This document shows positions 4,073 through 42,790 of a stretch of 44,526 bases of DNA, one piece after another. The DNA is from Escherichia phage vB_EcoP-101117UKE2, in the sequence record MZ234019.1, one strand, 5' to 3'. The translations under genes were made by a program, and so were the position numbers. Positions within the stretch are counted from its first letter, which is position 1, and each line of letters starts with the position of its first letter. The notes under the pieces are model-generated. The model was not told the DNA's origin and made no database searches. It saw only the letters and a program-made list of their open reading frames with translations.

Positions 4073-6061
4073 ATGGCTATTATTCAGAATGTACCGTGTC
4101 CTGCCTGTCAAAAGAATGGACATGATATTACTGGCAACCATCTTATGATATTTGAGGATGGCGCTGGTTACTGTAATCGTGGTCACTTCCATGATAACGG
4201 TAAGCCTTACTATCATAAGCCAGAGGGCGGCATCGAGATAACCGAATTGCCCATTACTGGCAATATCAAATACACACCTTCTCAATTCAAAGAAATGGAG
4301 AAGGAAGGGAAGATAAGCGACCCTAAGCTACGCGCCATCGCACTAGGTGGTATGCGTATGAAAGACCGTTGGGAGGTCATGAATGAGCAAGAAAGGGCAG
4401 AGCAAGAAGCAGAGTGGAAACTTGATGTTGAATGGTTCCTCACGCTTAAGCGTAAGAATCTTGTTTCCCGACACATTCGCGGCGACATTTGCGCATTGTA
4501 TGATGTACGTGTCGGACATGATGAAGAGGGTAGAGTCTCACGGCATTACTATCCACGCTTCGAGAAAGGTGAACTAGTAGGCGCTAAGTGTCGCACATTA
4601 CCTAAAGACTTTAAGTTTGGTCATTTAGGTAAACTATTTGGTATGCAAGATCTTTTCGGTATGAATACTTTGTCTCACGTGTTAGACAAGGGAAGACGAA
4701 AGGATTGCTTGCTTATTGTGGGTGGGGAACTGGATGCACTAGCAGCGCAGCAGATGCTCCTTGATTCTGCCAAGGGTACTAAGTGGGAAGGGCAGCCTTA
4801 CCATGTATGGTCTGTCAATAAGGGTGAATCTTGCCTTGAAGAAATTGTGCAGAACCGTGAGCACATCGCCCAATTCAAGAAGATTATTTGGGGCTTTGAT
4901 GGGGATGAGGTAGGACAGAAGCAGAACCAACAAGCGGCTCGCCTGTTTCCTGGCAAATCCTACATCCTTGAATACCCTTCTGGTTGCAAAGATGCCAACA
5001 AGGCATTGATGGCTGGTAAAGCCAAAGAATTTGTGGATGCTTGGTTTAATGCAAAGCCATCTGATGAAGTCTTTGGTAGCCAGATTAAATCTATCGCATC
5101 TCAAAGGGATAAGCTCAAGGCTGCACGTCCAGAACAAGGGCTGTCATGGCCTTGGCCTAAGCTAAACAAGGTAACGCTGGGTATCCGTAAGAATCAGCTT
5201 ATCATTGTAGGTGCAGGCTCTGGTGTGGGTAAGACTGAGTTCCTCCGTGAAGTAGTTAAGCATCTCATTGAAGAACACGGTGAATCTGTAGGCATCATTT
5301 CTACAGAAGACCCGATGGTTAAGGTGTCCCGTGCTTTTATCGGTAAGTGGATTGATAAGCGTATTGAGCTACCGCCAACCAATGACCCGAAAGAAGATGG
5401 ATACCGTGAGGTGTTCGACTATACCGAGGAAGAGGCTAACGCTGCCATTGACTATGTAGCTGATACAGGGAAGCTGTTTGTGGCTGACCTAGAGGGTGAC
5501 TATTCAATGGAGAAGGTAGAGCAGACCTGCCTTGAGTTTGAGGCTATGGGTATTTCTAATATCATCATTGATAACTTAACGGGGATTAAATTAGATGAGC
5601 GTGCTTTTGGTGGGAAGGTTGGTGCACTTGATGAATGCGTCAAGCGGATTGGCACTATCAAGGACAGACATGCAGTTACTATCTTCCTTGTCTCGCACCT
5701 TACTCGCCCTGCGGGAAACCGAGTCCAACACGAAGAAGGTGGCGAGGTTATCCTTTCTGACTTCCGAGGCTCAGGGGCTATCGGATTCTGGGCATCTTAC
5801 GCCTTGGGGATTGAGCGTAACACAAGAGCTGAAACGCTTGACGAAAGGACTACCACGTACATCTCATGTGTCAAAGATCGCGACCAAGGTATCTTCACCG
5901 GAACCAAGATTATGCTTAAGGGTGACATTCAAACCGGACGTTTGAGAGAACCACAGGCTAGAACAAGGTCATTTGATACAGGCGAAGCAAGGCAACAAGA
6001 AGTACCGGATTTACCGGACACTATAGAAGAGACAACCTTTGATGATGAACAGGAGTTTTGA
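4073..6061 (+). CDS. DNA primase/helicase (T7 gp4-like, 662 aa)
   Basis: N-terminal Cys4 zinc ribbon (CPACQ...CNRGHFH), helicase Walker A GAGSGVGKT, acidic C-terminus ending DDEQEF. Confidence 0.95.
   Translation: MAIIQNVPCPACQKNGHDITGNHLMIFEDGAGYCNRGHFHDNGKPYYHKPEGGIEITELPITGNIKYTPSQFKEMEKEGKISDPKLRAIALGGMRMKDRWEVMNEQERAEQEAEWKLDVEWFLTLKRKNLVSRHIRGDICALYDVRVGHDEEGRVSRHYYPRFEKGELVGAKCRTLPKDFKFGHLGKLFGMQDLFGMNTLSHVLDKGRRKDCLLIVGGELDALAAQQMLLDSAKGTKWEGQPYHVWSVNKGESCLEEIVQNREHIAQFKKIIWGFDGDEVGQKQNQQAARLFPGKSYILEYPSGCKDANKALMAGKAKEFVDAWFNAKPSDEVFGSQIKSIASQRDKLKAARPEQGLSWPWPKLNKVTLGIRKNQLIIVGAGSGVGKTEFLREVVKHLIEEHGESVGIISTEDPMVKVSRAFIGKWIDKRIELPPTNDPKEDGYREVFDYTEEEANAAIDYVADTGKLFVADLEGDYSMEKVEQTCLEFEAMGISNIIIDNLTGIKLDERAFGGKVGALDECVKRIGTIKDRHAVTIFLVSHLTRPAGNRVQHEEGGEVILSDFRGSGAIGFWASYALGIERNTRAETLDERTTTYISCVKDRDQGIFTGTKIMLKGDIQTGRLREPQARTRSFDTGEARQQEVPDLPDTIEETTFDDEQEF
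6009..6031 (+). promoter_or_regulatory. phage RNAP promoter ATTTACCGGACACTATAGAAGAG embedded in 3' end of primase gene
   Basis: Full consensus match inside coding sequence. Confidence 0.75.
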
Positions 6062-6222
6062 TGGAAATTATTAAACCAGTATTGAATATCGGTATTGACA
6101 TCCTATTCATGCTTGTGATCGCAGATTATGCTGCACGATATGGATTCAAGAAAGCTGTGAAACTTATCGTTGCATCTGGTTTTCTTATGTCAATGTTCTT
6201 TATTGTAACACGCCTTATCTAG
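6061..6222 (+). CDS. small hydrophobic protein (53 aa), probable membrane protein
   Basis: ATG overlaps primase stop (TGATG); MEIIKPVLNIGIDILFMLVIADYAARYGFKKAVKLIVASGFLMSMFFIVTRLI. Confidence 0.4.
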   Translation: MEIIKPVLNIGIDILFMLVIADYAARYGFKKAVKLIVASGFLMSMFFIVTRLI

Positions 6223-6239
6223 TGTATTTATCAGGGCTT

Positions 6240-6255
6240 GTCTCACATGTGAGAC
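6240..6255. repeat. 16-bp perfect palindrome GTCTCACATGTGAGAC (copy 3)
   Basis: Exact copy; flanking bases extend the potential stem. Confidence 0.9.
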
Positions 6256-6294
6256 AGGCTCTTATTAAGTACATTAAATAACTGGAGATTGATT

Positions 6295-6474
6295 ATGTAT
6301 AAATTAGTATTGAATGTAGGTGATTATGTTCGTAACATCAATGCAACCTCACGTAGATATCGTTGCCGTGGTACTGTGACTAATGTAAGTGAAAACAGCT
6401 ACTATGTAGAGTACAGTAATGGTATTAGACAGGCTTATCAAAAGGGAAAACAGCTACTATGTAGAGTACAGTAA
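6295..6474 (+). CDS. N-terminal fragment of hypothetical protein, truncated by frameshift from a 55-bp tandem duplication
   Basis: ATG 6295 with GGAGA RBS; ends ...ENSYYVEYSNGIRQAYQKG then out-of-frame stop. Confidence 0.5.
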   Translation: MYKLVLNVGDYVRNINATSRRYRCRGTVTNVSENSYYVEYSNGIRQAYQKGKQLLCRVQ

Positions 6475-6501
6475 TGGTATTAGACAGGCTTATCAAAAGG
6501 A
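6392..6501. repeat. perfect direct tandem duplication, 2 x 55 bp
   Basis: AAAACAGCTACTATGTAGAGTACAGTAATGGTATTAGACAGGCTTATCAAAAGG present twice back to back with period 55. Confidence 0.95.
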
Positions 6502-7072
6502 ATCAGCACATAACTACCTTGAGAAGATTGGAGAGGTAAGCAATCAATGTAAGTGCGTACACGATGAGATTTGCGATAAGTGTGCACGTCAGGCAGTTAA
6601 AGCCTTTACCTTTGCTCAACGTTATGGTTCTATGTATGGTGCTGGTCACAAGACCATTGTAGAAGCAGCTTGGAAGACATTACAGCTTGAGCGTTCAAAT
6701 GGACGACGCACCACACTTAAGAAAGAGCGCCGCAATGTAATCACTGGTAAGACTCAAAGTGAGATGGTTAAGCTGTGTGGCACGGCACTAGGTGTTACGC
6801 AGTTTAACACTCGTGCTTTAGGTAAATCCACAGGACAAGCTATGGTGAAGATTGGTGAGGCCATGATGCACCCAAATGTACCTGTGCGAATCATGGATGT
6901 TGACCATGCAATCACAGAACATGGTACAACACGGCGTGTAGTTAATAATCATTTTGCCGACACTATAGAAGATATTATCCGTAAGCAAGGATTGAAAGGT
7001 CTTCACATCTTAAATGGTGAAGAGTTGCTGTACCTTCCTATTGTTACCGAAGAAACCTACGTGAATATCTAA
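6419..7072 (+). CDS. hypothetical protein, C-terminal part of gene split by the 55-bp duplication (217-aa ORF as assembled)
   Basis: Re-encodes ENSYYVEYSNGIRQAYQK in the second repeat copy, then continues ESAHNYLEKIGEV...; intact gene about 242 aa if one copy is removed. Confidence 0.55.
   Translation: MVLDRLIKRENSYYVEYSNGIRQAYQKESAHNYLEKIGEVSNQCKCVHDEICDKCARQAVKAFTFAQRYGSMYGAGHKTIVEAAWKTLQLERSNGRRTTLKKERRNVITGKTQSEMVKLCGTALGVTQFNTRALGKSTGQAMVKIGEAMMHPNVPVRIMDVDHAITEHGTTRRVVNNHFADTIEDIIRKQGLKGLHILNGEELLYLPIVTEETYVNI
6951..6973 (+). promoter_or_regulatory. weak promoter-like site ATTTTGCCGACACTATAGAAGAT inside coding sequence
   Basis: Core CACTATAG with three upstream mismatches to consensus. 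Confidence 0.25.
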
Positions 7073-7082
7073 GGAGTTAATC

Positions 7083-7301
7083 ATGACTAAAGTATTGATT
7101 TATATGAGAGGTGCTAATAAATGCTATGCAGTTGTAGCACCTGATGGTGTCAAGCCTTACGGTACTTCAAAAGGATTAGCATTAATAGGTGCTAGTCGCA
7201 GTGCAAGTTTCCAAATGGAACTTTTTGGTCATTGGACTGAAAAAGAATTCCGTGAAGAGTTTAATGTAATTGGCAGCTTTATGGTGAAACATGCAAAATA
7301 A
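7083..7301 (+). CDS. hypothetical protein (72 aa)
   Basis: ATG with AAGGAG RBS. Confidence 0.6.
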   Translation: MTKVLIYMRGANKCYAVVAPDGVKPYGTSKGLALIGASRSASFQMELFGHWTEKEFREEFNVIGSFMVKHAK

Positions 7302-11004: not shown

Positions 11005-11811
11005 ATGGCACGTGGTGATTTTGATTTTGGTGCTCAAGTTACTAAAGCTGAAGGTAAAGTATTTAAGAACCCAGAAGTAGGTGATCATGAAGCAGTTATC
11101 TCTGGCATCATTCATGTTGGTTCCTTCCAAGACATCTTTAAGAAAGGTAATACCACTGAAGTTAAGAAGCCAGCAAACTTTGTTCTGGTTAAGATTATCC
11201 TGATGGGTGACGATGACAAGAACGAAGATGATTCTCGCATGGAACAATGGATGGCTGTGCCTCTGAAGTCTGGTGATAAGGCAACACTGACTAAGTTCCT
11301 GAATGCAGTTGACCCTAAAGAATTGCTTGGTGGCTTCGATGACTTCATTGGTGAATGCCTGACTGCAACCATGGTTGGCTCTGGTGATAAGAATGACGAT
11401 GGCTCATTCAAGTATGTTAACTGGAAGGGCTTTGGTGGTATGCCTGACAAGCTGAAGAAACTTGTAATTGCTCAGGTTGAAGAAGAAGGTCTGTCTATGA
11501 CAGGTCACATTACCTTTGACAAGCTGACCAAAGAAATCCTTGATGACATTCCTGCTAACTTGGTACGCCAATACTTCCTGAATGAAACCCCTCGTGGTAA
11601 GAACCTGTCTGTTGCTGGTTCTCACGTAGAAGAAATCATTAAAGCTGCTCGTGAAGAAGACCCTGAGTGGAAGAAGGCTAAGAAGAAAGATGACGAGGAT
11701 GCTACTCCAGCTAATCGTAAGTCTCTGGACACTGGCGAGTCTGTTCCACAGGAAGTGCCGGAGGCAGAGGACACTCCTGCACCGGAAATGGATGAAGACG
11801 CGGAATACTAA
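11005..11811 (+). CDS. putative ssDNA-binding protein (268 aa) with acidic C-terminal tail
   Basis: AGGAG RBS; highly biased codon usage; C-terminus ...PEMDEDAEY as in phage SSB tails; function inferred only. Confidence 0.7.
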   Translation: MARGDFDFGAQVTKAEGKVFKNPEVGDHEAVISGIIHVGSFQDIFKKGNTTEVKKPANFVLVKIILMGDDDKNEDDSRMEQWMAVPLKSGDKATLTKFLNAVDPKELLGGFDDFIGECLTATMVGSGDKNDDGSFKYVNWKGFGGMPDKLKKLVIAQVEEEGLSMTGHITFDKLTKEILDDIPANLVRQYFLNETPRGKNLSVAGSHVEEIIKAAREEDPEWKKAKKKDDEDATPANRKSLDTGESVPQEVPEAEDTPAPEMDEDAEY

Positions 11812-28548: not shown

Positions 28549-31500
28549 ATGGTTGATAGTATTAACCAAAACTGGGTGGCGGTGACTCAACGCAAGTTAC
28601 CGCCTACCTTCTCTCAAATTGCTGAAGCTGAGCGTAAGGCTGAAGCCCAGAGAGCTAATGATAAAGTGTTTCAAACAGCAATAGAAAGTGAGTGGGCTTT
28701 ATATGGCGGACAACGTGCCTATGAACGCCACACTACAGAGTTTGCTGAACAAGAAGGCTATGAAGTGCCTGAGTCAACTAAGGATGAGTTATCCAAGTTG
28801 TATGGGTATGAAATAGCGCAAGACATAGTTAAGAATGTAAAGTCTCCAGAAGAGTTGCAATTCCGTATGTCTAATGCTGCTGCTGATAAAGACAGAGCAG
28901 ACATCTTAGCACGTAATGGTTTCACGGGTTTCAGCGCGCAGATTGCTGCTGGCATCCTTGACCCTGTAGGTTGGGCTGCATCCTTAGTGGCTGCGCCTGT
29001 AGCGGGTGCTGTCAAAGTAGGTAGGCTAGGTAGGATTATCAAGACGGCTGCCTTATCAGGTGCTGAAAATGCTGCATTAGAAGCTATACTTGCACAAGGT
29101 GATTACCAGCGAGGGGTTGATGATGTACTGGCTGCTGCCGGATTTGGTATGATTATGGGCGGCACTATTGGTGCTGCAACCAGAGAGCGCATAGCCAGTG
29201 CTGGTTCTCGTACAGCGGCAGAACGAGCAGATGCTGTAGTTGATGACTTGGACACTGTAGTAAAAGGTGCTGATGAATTTGACTCGTCTGCGGCTCGTGC
29301 TGTACGTGAAGCTATGGAATATGACGCGTATATGGCAGCGCGTAATTACGAACCACTTCGTGCAAGAGAGGTAGATGCAGACATGGCGATTCTGTCTCAC
29401 ACAGATAATTTGAAAGCCAATGCATCGGTAAGGATGAGTGCTAGTGAGAAAGGGCAACTGAAGAAGCAGATACGTCAGCTTGAAGCAGAAGCAGCAACAC
29501 TTAAAGGGAAGAAGATAGACACTGTAGCGGAAGCTGCGGCTGCTAAGGGTGCACCTAAATCTGCTGCTGACAGATTAGATTTGGATGTTCAGAAGAAAGC
29601 ATTAGCACGTAGATTTGATGAACCACTGGCAGACTTACAAGCGCGTCTTGATGAGTTGAATGCTAAATTGTCTCGTGTAAACAATGTAGGCAAAGCCAAG
29701 GAAGAGCTTAAGAGATTCTCATCGCTATCTCGTGAAGAGCAAATAAAGGAGTTAGGTCTAGACGCACCAGTGCGCAAGGTAGAGATGACCCGTGCCGTGC
29801 GAGATGCAATTGACGCAATCCGTGCCGAGCGTAAGAAGACGCCTACCGAAATACATGCTGAACAAGTCGCAGAAGATGCAATTAAGCAAAGGGCAGACGA
29901 CTCTGTTGGTGCTAAACGTGTTGAAGGTTCAGAGATTGCAGGTGAACAGTTTGACCTATCTAAAAACATGGAAGAACTTATGGATGACTTGGCACGAGAA
30001 GCATACCAGTCAGAGGTGCGGCCTATTAATCTTAAGGGTTTAGGTTCAGTGTCTTCTGTGATTCTTAACTCAGAGAATCCTGTGTTCCGAGGCCTAGGTC
30101 TTCGTCTGCTTGAAAATGCTCAAGGTGGTGCATATCAAGGTAAGACAGCTTCTATCTTATCAGATGTGTATGGCAACCTTATTCGTCATGCAGAACGTAA
30201 CAGATACAATGATGGCTTCTCTCAGTTCATCAAAGATAATAACCTACGTGCGGTAGATTATCTTAACCCTGCAACGACAAGGGATTTCAATAATCAGATT
30301 TATACAGCAATTGTTCGTGGCATACCAGAAGATACACCTCGTGGTGTTAAACTGGCAGCCGAAGGTATTGCAGATAAGCTCAAGAAAGCACTGGAGATTC
30401 GTAAGCAAGCAGGTGAGCGAGGCTTCGAGGATGTGCAATCTGCTAAAGATTATATTCCCGTTATCTACGATGGTATCAAGATCACAGAGGCAGTTAACAA
30501 GTTAGGTAGTAGTGAAGCTGTCATTCACTTGCTATCTAAAGGGTATCAGACAGGCAAGTACAAACTTGGCAAGAAAGCTGCTGATGCACTAGCCAAAGTT
30601 CAGTATATTCGCGCATCTGACTCCACCCTCTCTAGTCGTGTTGCATTCGATAGAGTAGTATCCCAGCAGCAGCAGGCTCAATTGATTGAGGATCTGAAGA
30701 AAGCAGGAGTACCAGACCATATCATTGATAATTTCATTGAAGGTACGGAATTAGCAGAAATGGCTGAATCGGTATCCAATCGAGCTAAAGCTAGCATGGG
30801 TATTAATACGCAAGCCGAATATGGCGGTTTGAAGGTGCAGGATTTGCTTAATACAAACGTAGGCGAGCTAGCTGAGAACTACGGCAAAGAGGCAGCAGGC
30901 GGTGCTGCATTAGCTGCCATGGGTTTCCCCACTCGCCAGTCTGTGCTGAATGCGATAGATGCCGCAGAACGCGCAGGTCGTAATATGGCGGGGTCAAATG
31001 CTAAGGCAATCAAACAGCTTAGAGCTGAGGCAGAAATGCTCAGAGATGCCGTTAAGCTCATTTACGGCAACACTATTGACGCCGACCCTAACTCTGGAAT
31101 TGTCAGAGGCACTCGACGTGTCCGTGAGATTACAGGCTTGTTACGATTGGGTCAAATGGGCTTCGCTCAGATACCAGAACTGGCACGTGCAATCTCTAAG
31201 ATGGGATTAGGTACTGTGCTGAAGTCCATACCTGCCACGAAGTTCTTACGTTCAAGGGCGGCTCGTAAGGGAGGAACAGCTCAAGGTGAATTACTTGAAC
31301 CTGAACTGCGAGAAATGGAGGAACTCTTAGGCTATATCGGGGAAGATAACTGGCTTACAGGGTGGAACGTCCGTCATGATGAGTTCGGAGAAACTGCTGA
31401 TAACCTAGGTAAGCTGTCTGCTATTATTGATAACGGATTAGCTATGGGTAGTAGAATCAACACAATACTCTCTGGATTTAAAGCAGTACAAGGTGGTTCA

Positions 31501-32352
31501 GAGAAAATTGTAGCTCGCTCTATCAATAAGAGATTAAAGCAGCACTTGATGGGTGAGAGACAATTACCTAAAGCAGACCTTGAAGAAGTAGGCCTAAGTG
31601 AAGATGTCATGAAAAGACTTAAGCGTCACTTTGATGACAACCCTCTGTACGCTGAGTACAATGGAGAAAAAGTTCGTATGCTGAACTTTGATGCTATGGA
31701 GCCAGACCTGAGAGAGACAGTGGGTGTTGCTGTGCGAAGAATGTCAGGCCGTCTTATTCAACGTAACTTCATTGGCGATGAAGGTATCTGGATGAATAAA
31801 TGGTGGGGCAAGGCATTAACGCAGTTTAAGTCATTCTCTATTGTCTCTATTGAGAAACAGCTAATCCATGATTTACGAGGTGATAAGATTCAGGCTGCAC
31901 AGATACTTGCATGGTCTACTTTACTAGGTTATGCATCTTATGCACTACAGATGCAGATGCAAGCGATTGGTAGGGAGGATAGAGACAAGTTCTTGAGGGA
32001 TAAGTTTGACACACAGAACATCGCTATGGGTGTCTTTAATAAACTTCCACAAGTTGCAGGCTTTGGTTTAGCTGGTGATGCTTTGGCAACCTTTGGCCTA
32101 ATGCCAGACTCCATGATGCAAGCACCGGGACGCATGGGTTTCCGTCAGCAAGGCTTTGGGGATTTGGTAGCAGGTGCTGGTGTAATAAGTGATACAGTTA
32201 ATTTGTCACAAGCACTGGTTAAGTATGCCAGTGGAGACGATGATGTCTCTACGAGGCAGTTGGTAGACAAGGTTCGTCGCCTTGTTCCTTTGGCAAATAC
32301 TATTGGTGTGGGTCAGATGACTAAAGCCAGTGTAGATTTATTGGAGGATTGA
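28549..32352 (+). CDS. large internal virion (core) protein (gp16-like, 1267 aa)
   Basis: Size and synteny; AGGAGG RBS. Confidence 0.8.
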   Translation: MVDSINQNWVAVTQRKLPPTFSQIAEAERKAEAQRANDKVFQTAIESEWALYGGQRAYERHTTEFAEQEGYEVPESTKDELSKLYGYEIAQDIVKNVKSPEELQFRMSNAAADKDRADILARNGFTGFSAQIAAGILDPVGWAASLVAAPVAGAVKVGRLGRIIKTAALSGAENAALEAILAQGDYQRGVDDVLAAAGFGMIMGGTIGAATRERIASAGSRTAAERADAVVDDLDTVVKGADEFDSSAARAVREAMEYDAYMAARNYEPLRAREVDADMAILSHTDNLKANASVRMSASEKGQLKKQIRQLEAEAATLKGKKIDTVAEAAAAKGAPKSAADRLDLDVQKKALARRFDEPLADLQARLDELNAKLSRVNNVGKAKEELKRFSSLSREEQIKELGLDAPVRKVEMTRAVRDAIDAIRAERKKTPTEIHAEQVAEDAIKQRADDSVGAKRVEGSEIAGEQFDLSKNMEELMDDLAREAYQSEVRPINLKGLGSVSSVILNSENPVFRGLGLRLLENAQGGAYQGKTASILSDVYGNLIRHAERNRYNDGFSQFIKDNNLRAVDYLNPATTRDFNNQIYTAIVRGIPEDTPRGVKLAAEGIADKLKKALEIRKQAGERGFEDVQSAKDYIPVIYDGIKITEAVNKLGSSEAVIHLLSKGYQTGKYKLGKKAADALAKVQYIRASDSTLSSRVAFDRVVSQQQQAQLIEDLKKAGVPDHIIDNFIEGTELAEMAESVSNRAKASMGINTQAEYGGLKVQDLLNTNVGELAENYGKEAAGGAALAAMGFPTRQSVLNAIDAAERAGRNMAGSNAKAIKQLRAEAEMLRDAVKLIYGNTIDADPNSGIVRGTRRVREITGLLRLGQMGFAQIPELARAISKMGLGTVLKSIPATKFLRSRAARKGGTAQGELLEPELREMEELLGYIGEDNWLTGWNVRHDEFGETADNLGKLSAIIDNGLAMGSRINTILSGFKAVQGGSEKIVARSINKRLKQHLMGERQLPKADLEEVGLSEDVMKRLKRHFDDNPLYAEYNGEKVRMLNFDAMEPDLRETVGVAVRRMSGRLIQRNFIGDEGIWMNKWWGKALTQFKSFSIVSIEKQLIHDLRGDKIQAAQILAWSTLLGYASYALQMQMQAIGREDRDKFLRDKFDTQNIAMGVFNKLPQVAGFGLAGDALATFGLMPDSMMQAPGRMGFRQQGFGDLVAGAGVISDTVNLSQALVKYASGDDDVSTRQLVDKVRRLVPLANTIGVGQMTKASVDLLED

Positions 32353-42127: not shown

Positions 42128-42300
42128 TCTCTCGCCCTCGCCCTCGCCGGGTTGTCCCCATAGGGTGGCCTGAGGGAATCCGTCTTCGACGGGCAGGGCT
42201 GATGTACTCCTTGTACTAGCTTAGTAGTACACAAGGGCTGGCCTTTTGTTTTGCCGTGTACTAGCAAGGTGGAACGCTGGAGAGCGCCTAGGACGGCCTA
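42128..42300. other. probable physical genome terminus and terminal-repeat region
   Basis: TCTCTCGCCCTCGCCCTCGCCGGGTTGTCCCCATAGGGTGG resembles the recalled T7 left-end sequence; lies between last late gene and early promoters. Confidence 0.5.
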
Positions 42301-42386
42301 GGGATGGGCTTAGTGGTGGACAAGGTGATTGCCTTAGTGAAGCCGCTTAGTGCATTCCTGAGGCCATTCAGGGCGTTTATGAGGTA

Positions 42387-42416: not shown

Positions 42417-42790
42417 TTCGTTTCGCTAACGCTCCACTCACAAGCCTGACGTGTACCTTAGTTATTACCTTAGGTTATTCCTTGATGGATAGCTTAGGTT
42501 AACCTGAGTGGATTACCTTAGTTAAAGCCTTAGTGCTTAGCTTAGTATCAGCTTAGTAGTGTACCTTAGTCAGACTTAGTGTCTTCTCTTAGTGATTGCA
42601 CATGCAAGCATGTAAGATGCCATTAGGTCGCGGTCGGTAGACCGCTAAGAAGAAATAATAGTAATAAGATGCAGTAGGAGGAACACCAGAAACCTGGCCA
42701 ACCTAGCCTATCCTAGCTCTGTATCTATTGCTTTTCCTTAGTCTAACACGTTAGACAACCTATCTTATTCTTAGTGATGGTAACTTAGTG

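Follow-up and report, generated by a model that had tools for sequence, protein, structure and literature searches.

A perfect 55-bp tandem duplication in the genome record of Escherichia phage vB_EcoP-101117UKE2 is very probably an untrimmed assembler overlap

The Interrupted Gene and Its Reading Frames

The window analyzed here is the whole 44,526-nucleotide sequence deposited for Escherichia phage vB_EcoP-101117UKE2 (MZ234019.1). Between the primase/helicase and the DNA polymerase genes it contains a gene that is interrupted by two adjacent copies of a 55-bp unit (Table 1). As 55 is not divisible by 3, the gene seems to be shifted out of frame. The reading frame opening at the ATG at 6295, which is preceded by GGAG, stops at a TAA (6472-6474) 29 nt inside the second copy, and the peptide ENSYYVEYSNGIRQAYQK is encoded a second time by the overlapping ORF that opens at 6419. 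The first nine residues of this second ORF are out of frame, and the remaining 208 constitute the C-terminal part of a 240-aa protein. No Shine-Dalgarno-like sequence was found ahead of its ATG. The database entry QZI79573.1, located on a contig of 44526 bases, matches the 217-aa ORF of the window residue for residue and is an artefactual gene model, while the exact 59-aa product is absent from the protein collection searched. When one copy of the unit is deleted, a single uninterrupted ORF of 240 aa is obtained.

Table 1. Positions of the 55-bp copies and of the reading frames that they affect (window coordinates).
Feature	Position	Strand	Description
Truncated 59-aa ORF	6295..6474	+	50 native N-terminal residues followed by 9 read out of frame before the stop
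217-aa ORF	6419..7072	+	Deposited as QZI79573.1 (101117UKE2_007), hypothetical protein
Real gene, with one copy deleted	6295..7072	+	723 nt, 240 aa, PHROG 6703
Copy 1 of the 55-bp unit	6391..6445	+	Native; spans codons 33-51 of the 240-aa gene
Copy 2 of the 55-bp unit (surplus)	6446..6500	+	Exactly identical to copy 1

The gene matches phrog_6703 in PHROGs (E = 7e-115), a family annotated as "unknown function." A Pfam search gave only a sub-threshold match to the HAS-barrel (E = 0.019; 15.5 bits against a cut-off of 25.2), and a sequence search of the PDB with the gene product gave no match. The single-sequence AlphaFold2 model of the product has a mean pLDDT of 34.5 and is unusable. What the gene does has no bearing on how the repeat is interpreted.

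Scanning of positions 6000-7200 for promoters and terminators gave no calls. A near-perfect inverted repeat, GGGCTTGTCTCACATGTGAGACAGGCTC, occupies 6234-6262, downstream of a small ORF that ends at 6222 and ahead of the ATG at 6295. It resembles a hairpin, or else a transcript-processing or terminator-like element, and it was not called by the terminator scan because it is not followed by a T-run.

Sequence and Borders of the Repeat

Positions 6391-6445 are exactly identical to positions 6446-6500, and MZ234019 thus contains a perfect 55-bp tandem duplication. The unit is GAAAACAGCTACTATGTAGAGTACAGTAATGGTATTAGACAGGCTTATCAAAAGG, running GAAAACAGC...CAAAAGG. At the copy junction, 6445|6446, the sequence reads CTTATCAAAAGG|GAAAACAGCTAC, and the string spanning the junction is CTTATCAAAAGGGAAAACAGCTAC. 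The run of identity at period 55 is exactly 55 bases long, and the bases flanking the repeat differ on both the 5' side (T vs. G) and the 3' side (G vs. A). Microhomology was sought at the borders and none was found, the identity ending at 55 bases on both sides; nor is any short-unit repeat tract present at the duplication. When length and composition are considered, such a run at period 55 is expected by chance about 1e-28 times in 44.5 kb. It is also the sole perfect tandem duplication with a period of 15-599 in the whole window. Copy 1 is identical to the single copy found in MZ234020.1, MZ234032.1, and six further relatives; designating copy 2 rather than copy 1 as the extra one is an arbitrary choice.

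Much of this had been noticed in the initial annotation. Its description of a 55-bp unit present twice, back to back and without mismatch, is borne out by the exact identity, and it had correctly seen that the frame from 6295 ends shortly past the first copy and that the same peptide is then re-encoded in another frame continuing to 7072. The single ORF that it expected upon deletion of one copy is indeed restored, although it is 240 and not about 242 aa long. The repeat had been placed at 6392-6501, which is one base too far to the right (6446 is a G and 6501 an A). The guess that the phage is SP6-like was right, the genome being that of a Vectrevirus.

The Site in Sibling Records and Other Relatives

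The region matches 81 phage records, mostly of E. coli Vectrevirus (SP6/K1E-like Autographiviridae), and the best 40 of these 81 cover it at single-copy length or shorter. The record MZ234020.1 (phage 101118B1, 44526 bp) has one copy at this site and an intact CDS at 6295..7017. MZ234019 equals MZ234020.1 base for base apart from two 55-bp differences: adding the copy at 6446-6500 to MZ234020.1 and removing one copy of the duplicate that the latter carries at 30940-31050 gives MZ234019 exactly. Phage G3A1 (MZ234032.1), which is 99.97% identical, has neither duplication; its CDS is likewise intact at 6295..7017, and its length of 44471 bp is 44526 - 55. Three assemblies of essentially one genome hence differ in the presence and the place of a perfect 55-bp duplicate.

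The initial annotation had proposed looking for the single-copy allele in related SP6-like genomes, and one copy was found in all eight relatives that were aligned, with the unit 100% conserved in each. These eight comprise five phages of the same study, Raoultella phage P3a, an IMG/VR contig, and a Logan contig; the latter derives from an unrelated sequencing run (SRR31306478). In the sibling records examined the gene is one uninterrupted ORF of 227-240 aa, as it is in the Logan contig, and the two-ORF arrangement is seen in MZ234019 only. A 60-base query centred on the junction found no contiguous junction in the phage records, and a 30-base junction pattern was not matched exactly anywhere in the viral, metagenome, or genome collections, while a control pattern covering the single-copy right border did return a match. 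The 217-aa product had no record in the contig index.

The equal lengths of the two records and the seemingly moved duplication raised the question of whether the window is an edited version of MZ234020.1. This was rejected, since the existence of QZI79573.1 and the listing of 101117UKE2 as MZ234019, 44526 bp, in Table 1 of the original study show that it is a separate deposited record (Loose et al., 2021; PMC8614997).

Other 55-bp Duplications in the Same Study

Twelve genomes of the study were scanned for perfect tandem duplications with a period of 15-399 (named in the scan are the window, MZ234020, MZ234032, which is G3A1, MZ234012, MZ234049, MZ234050, MZ234021, MZ234022, MZ234023, MZ234011, and MZ234024). 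Three were found, one in each of three genomes, and all have period 55. The one in MZ234020.1 (30940-31050) lies inside the gene of the internal virion protein gp16, 24.5 kb from the site in MZ234019, and gp16 is split there into two CDS, QZI79660.1 (28494..31004) and QZI79661.1 (30943..32352). In the window gp16 is intact as one ORF of 1267 aa (28549-32352), the matching single-copy site lying at about 30995-31050, and it is also a single CDS in G3A1. The third duplication is found in the Kayfunavirus record MZ234023.1 at 11118-11227, where it is intergenic and upstream of ocr; the near-identical sibling MZ234022.1 is without it. No 55-bp duplication is present in the near-identical siblings G3A1 and 101120B1-2.

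The runs of identity are 55 bases in MZ234019, 56 in MZ234020.1, and 55 in MZ234023.1, lengths that would fit a fixed overlap of 55 bases plus chance extension.

Rotation of the Records and the Genome Ends

Base 1 of phage K1-5 (AY370674) aligns to position 42132 of the window and base 1 of K1E (AM084415) to position 42130. As judged from these alignments, MZ234019 gives the packaged genome in circularly permuted form. The deposited start is uniform within each genus of the study: all Vectrevirus records open with the CDS that precedes the RNA polymerase gene, at its ATG, and all Kayfunavirus records open with gp16, likewise at its ATG. SP6-like phages are expected to have a direct terminal repeat, and none was found in the deposited study records that were scanned for one. 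From the rotated starts and the lack of terminal repeats it follows that the contigs were handled as circular and opened at a new point. MZ234019 thus retains the expected terminal repeat as a single copy and does not show the true genome ends; the positions concerned are 42130-42365 and position 1, the start of the record.

A degenerate tandem array is found at 42454-42570, some 320-440 bp in from what is presumed to be the left end of the genome. It consists of about 10 copies of 12/24-bp units with the consensus TACCTTAGTTAT and 58-78% matches. The stretch containing it can be aligned with the first 1.5 kb of K1-5 at about 91%, and the array may have a role, for example, in the processing of concatemers or as part of a replication or early-promoter region.

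Proposed Origin of the Duplication

The initial annotation had left three readings of the repeat side by side: a very recent event, an assembly artefact, and a genuine on/off switch. Only the artefact is upheld, because the sibling has a single copy, the same length of 55 bp recurs at other places in the study, and the junction was found in none of the relatives and public collections examined. Taken together, the sequence comparisons make it very probable that the repeat in MZ234019 is the untrimmed contig-end overlap of an assembly with k = 55, that is, a product of sequence processing and not of biology.

Linear phage DNA that has direct terminal repeats and replicates as concatemers would be expected to give a SPAdes contig that looks circular and is broken at an arbitrary point. 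Such a contig would bear the same k bases at both ends, with k being 55 in this case. The depositors would then have re-cut it so that its first bases are the ATG of the gene preceding that of the RNA polymerase, leaving one copy of the overlap untrimmed. If a contig of the form X-M-X is cut within M and the parts are rejoined, the result would be M2-X-X-M1, in which X forms a perfect internal tandem duplication. The junction at 6445|6446 would accordingly mark the seam at which the two ends of the original contig were joined. This join would have landed in the conserved 240-aa gene, and Prokka would subsequently have called the spurious 217-aa protein.

The period of 55 is one of the lengths typical of assembler k. 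SPAdes uses k values of 21/33/55/77/99/127, and in the default isolate mode k normally goes up to 127 with 2x300 reads. This counts against the overlap: with a default reaching 127, a final k of 55 would imply the use of --meta or --sc, k values set explicitly as -k 21,33,55, or reads that had been trimmed heavily. According to the published methods the genomes were sequenced on a MiSeq, assembled with SPAdes 3.13.0/3.14.1, and annotated with Prokka, with Geneious used for mapping; k values are not stated (PMC8614997). We infer both that the final k was 55 and that the ends of the original contig lay at the 6391-6500 site. It also counts against the overlap that only three of the twelve scanned genomes are affected; trimming in the study would have been inconsistent rather than systematically omitted.

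Similar overlaps have been described. In the CheckV survey of 751,567 contigs the repeats at contig ends pile up at 55, 77, and 99 bp, which was explained by assemblers opening circular templates at random, so that each contig end retains the same k bases (PMC8116208, Extended Data Fig. 3b). The announcement of phage 132 reports a SPAdes contig with 55-bp overlapping ends that were trimmed by the authors (PMC8483715). The repeat in MZ234019 resembles these k-mer repeats in being 55 bp long, perfect, arbitrarily positioned, specific to one assembly, and derived from SPAdes. It differs from them in that the copies are adjacent and internal, so that they look like a tandem duplication and frameshift a gene. 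The internal position would result from rotating the untrimmed contig to a chosen start.

A parallel within the same phage family is found in short-read assemblies of T7-like przondoviruses, which contained repeats of about 79 bp that had no read-depth support and that Sanger sequencing showed to be artefacts in most of the phages (PMC10438801). Both cases concern Autographiviridae and the short-read assembly of a terminally repeated genome followed by re-orientation. The przondovirus repeats are however longer (about 79 vs. 55 bp) and lie near or within the terminal-repeat region, whereas that of MZ234019 is 8.8 kb from this region when measured around the circle. The przondovirus repeats were furthermore checked by Sanger sequencing, while the one in MZ234019 is judged from comparisons of assembled sequences.

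Alternative Explanations

The repeat could also be a real and very recent tandem duplication that arose in the 101117UKE2 stock through slippage during replication or through unequal recombination and that inactivated a dispensable early gene. It is after all present in the sequence as deposited, tandem duplications do occur in T7-like phages, and a gene without known function could be dispensable in the laboratory. If this were true, the conserved PHROG-6703 early gene would be shown to be dispensable for plaque formation. Two head-to-tail copies of a unit not divisible by 3 are also what natural tandem duplication or slipped-strand phase variation would leave behind. Unlike such natural cases, MZ234019 has no microhomology at the repeat borders, the run being exactly 55 bases, and its relatives show no polymorphism in copy number: all eight that were aligned have one copy, and the best 40 of the 81 records are of single-copy length or shorter. 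Duplications of this same 55-bp length are present at other, unrelated places in genomes that went through the same pipeline, and a real event would have to match two of them, one in another genus, as well as the assembler k, by coincidence. The remainder of the genome is moreover 100% identical to that of 101118B1, and the junction was absent from the phage, viral, metagenome, and genome collections searched. The counterpart in MZ234020.1 disrupts gp16, and as gp16 is essential in T7, that duplication is unlikely in a plaque-forming phage. A real duplication is for these reasons considered very unlikely. The idea that the site is an on/off (phase-variable) switch, a programmed frameshift, or some other recoding site that toggles or splits the gene has only the formal point in its favor that 55 is not a multiple of 3, so that the frame toggles. 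No short-unit repeat tract is present, the eight relatives aligned show no variation in copy number and a fully conserved unit, the downstream ORF from the ATG at 6419 lacks a ribosome-binding site, and the homologues examined have single uninterrupted ORFs, whereas a programmed frameshift would call for a conserved slippery site and a two-ORF arrangement common to them. A switch would equally have to explain the 55-bp duplicates in gp16 of MZ234020.1 and in the intergenic region of MZ234023.1, and its probability is negligible.

An artefact might instead have arisen in another step, for example as a cut-and-paste or circularization error made manually in Geneious, or as an error in a read-mapping consensus. 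Geneious was used for mapping, and the rotation was evidently performed by hand or by script and with inconsistent results, 3 of 12 genomes being affected. A manual error would however not be expected to yield exactly 55 bp three times, and 55 is one of the k-mer lengths at which contig-end repeats pile up (PMC8116208) and has been seen in a SPAdes phage assembly (PMC8483715). Such an origin is thus regarded as most improbable, and the untrimmed k = 55 overlap is the preferred explanation.

Consequences for the Databases

If the duplication is an assembler overlap, the locus harbors neither a switch nor a pseudogene, and the value of the observation lies in database hygiene. In genome scans of short-read phage or plasmid assemblies, any perfect two-copy tandem repeat whose period is 55, 77, 99, or 127 bp should be filtered automatically and presumed to be an assembler overlap until reads disagree. 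Three GenBank records need correction, namely MZ234019 (6391-6500), MZ234020.1 (30940-31050), and MZ234023.1 (11118-11227). From two of them false protein models have spread into nr and UniRef: QZI79573.1 and the split gp16 represented by QZI79660.1 and QZI79661.1. QZI79573.1 has its own UniRef100 entry, UniRef100_A0AAE7XRS4, which is a singleton cluster.
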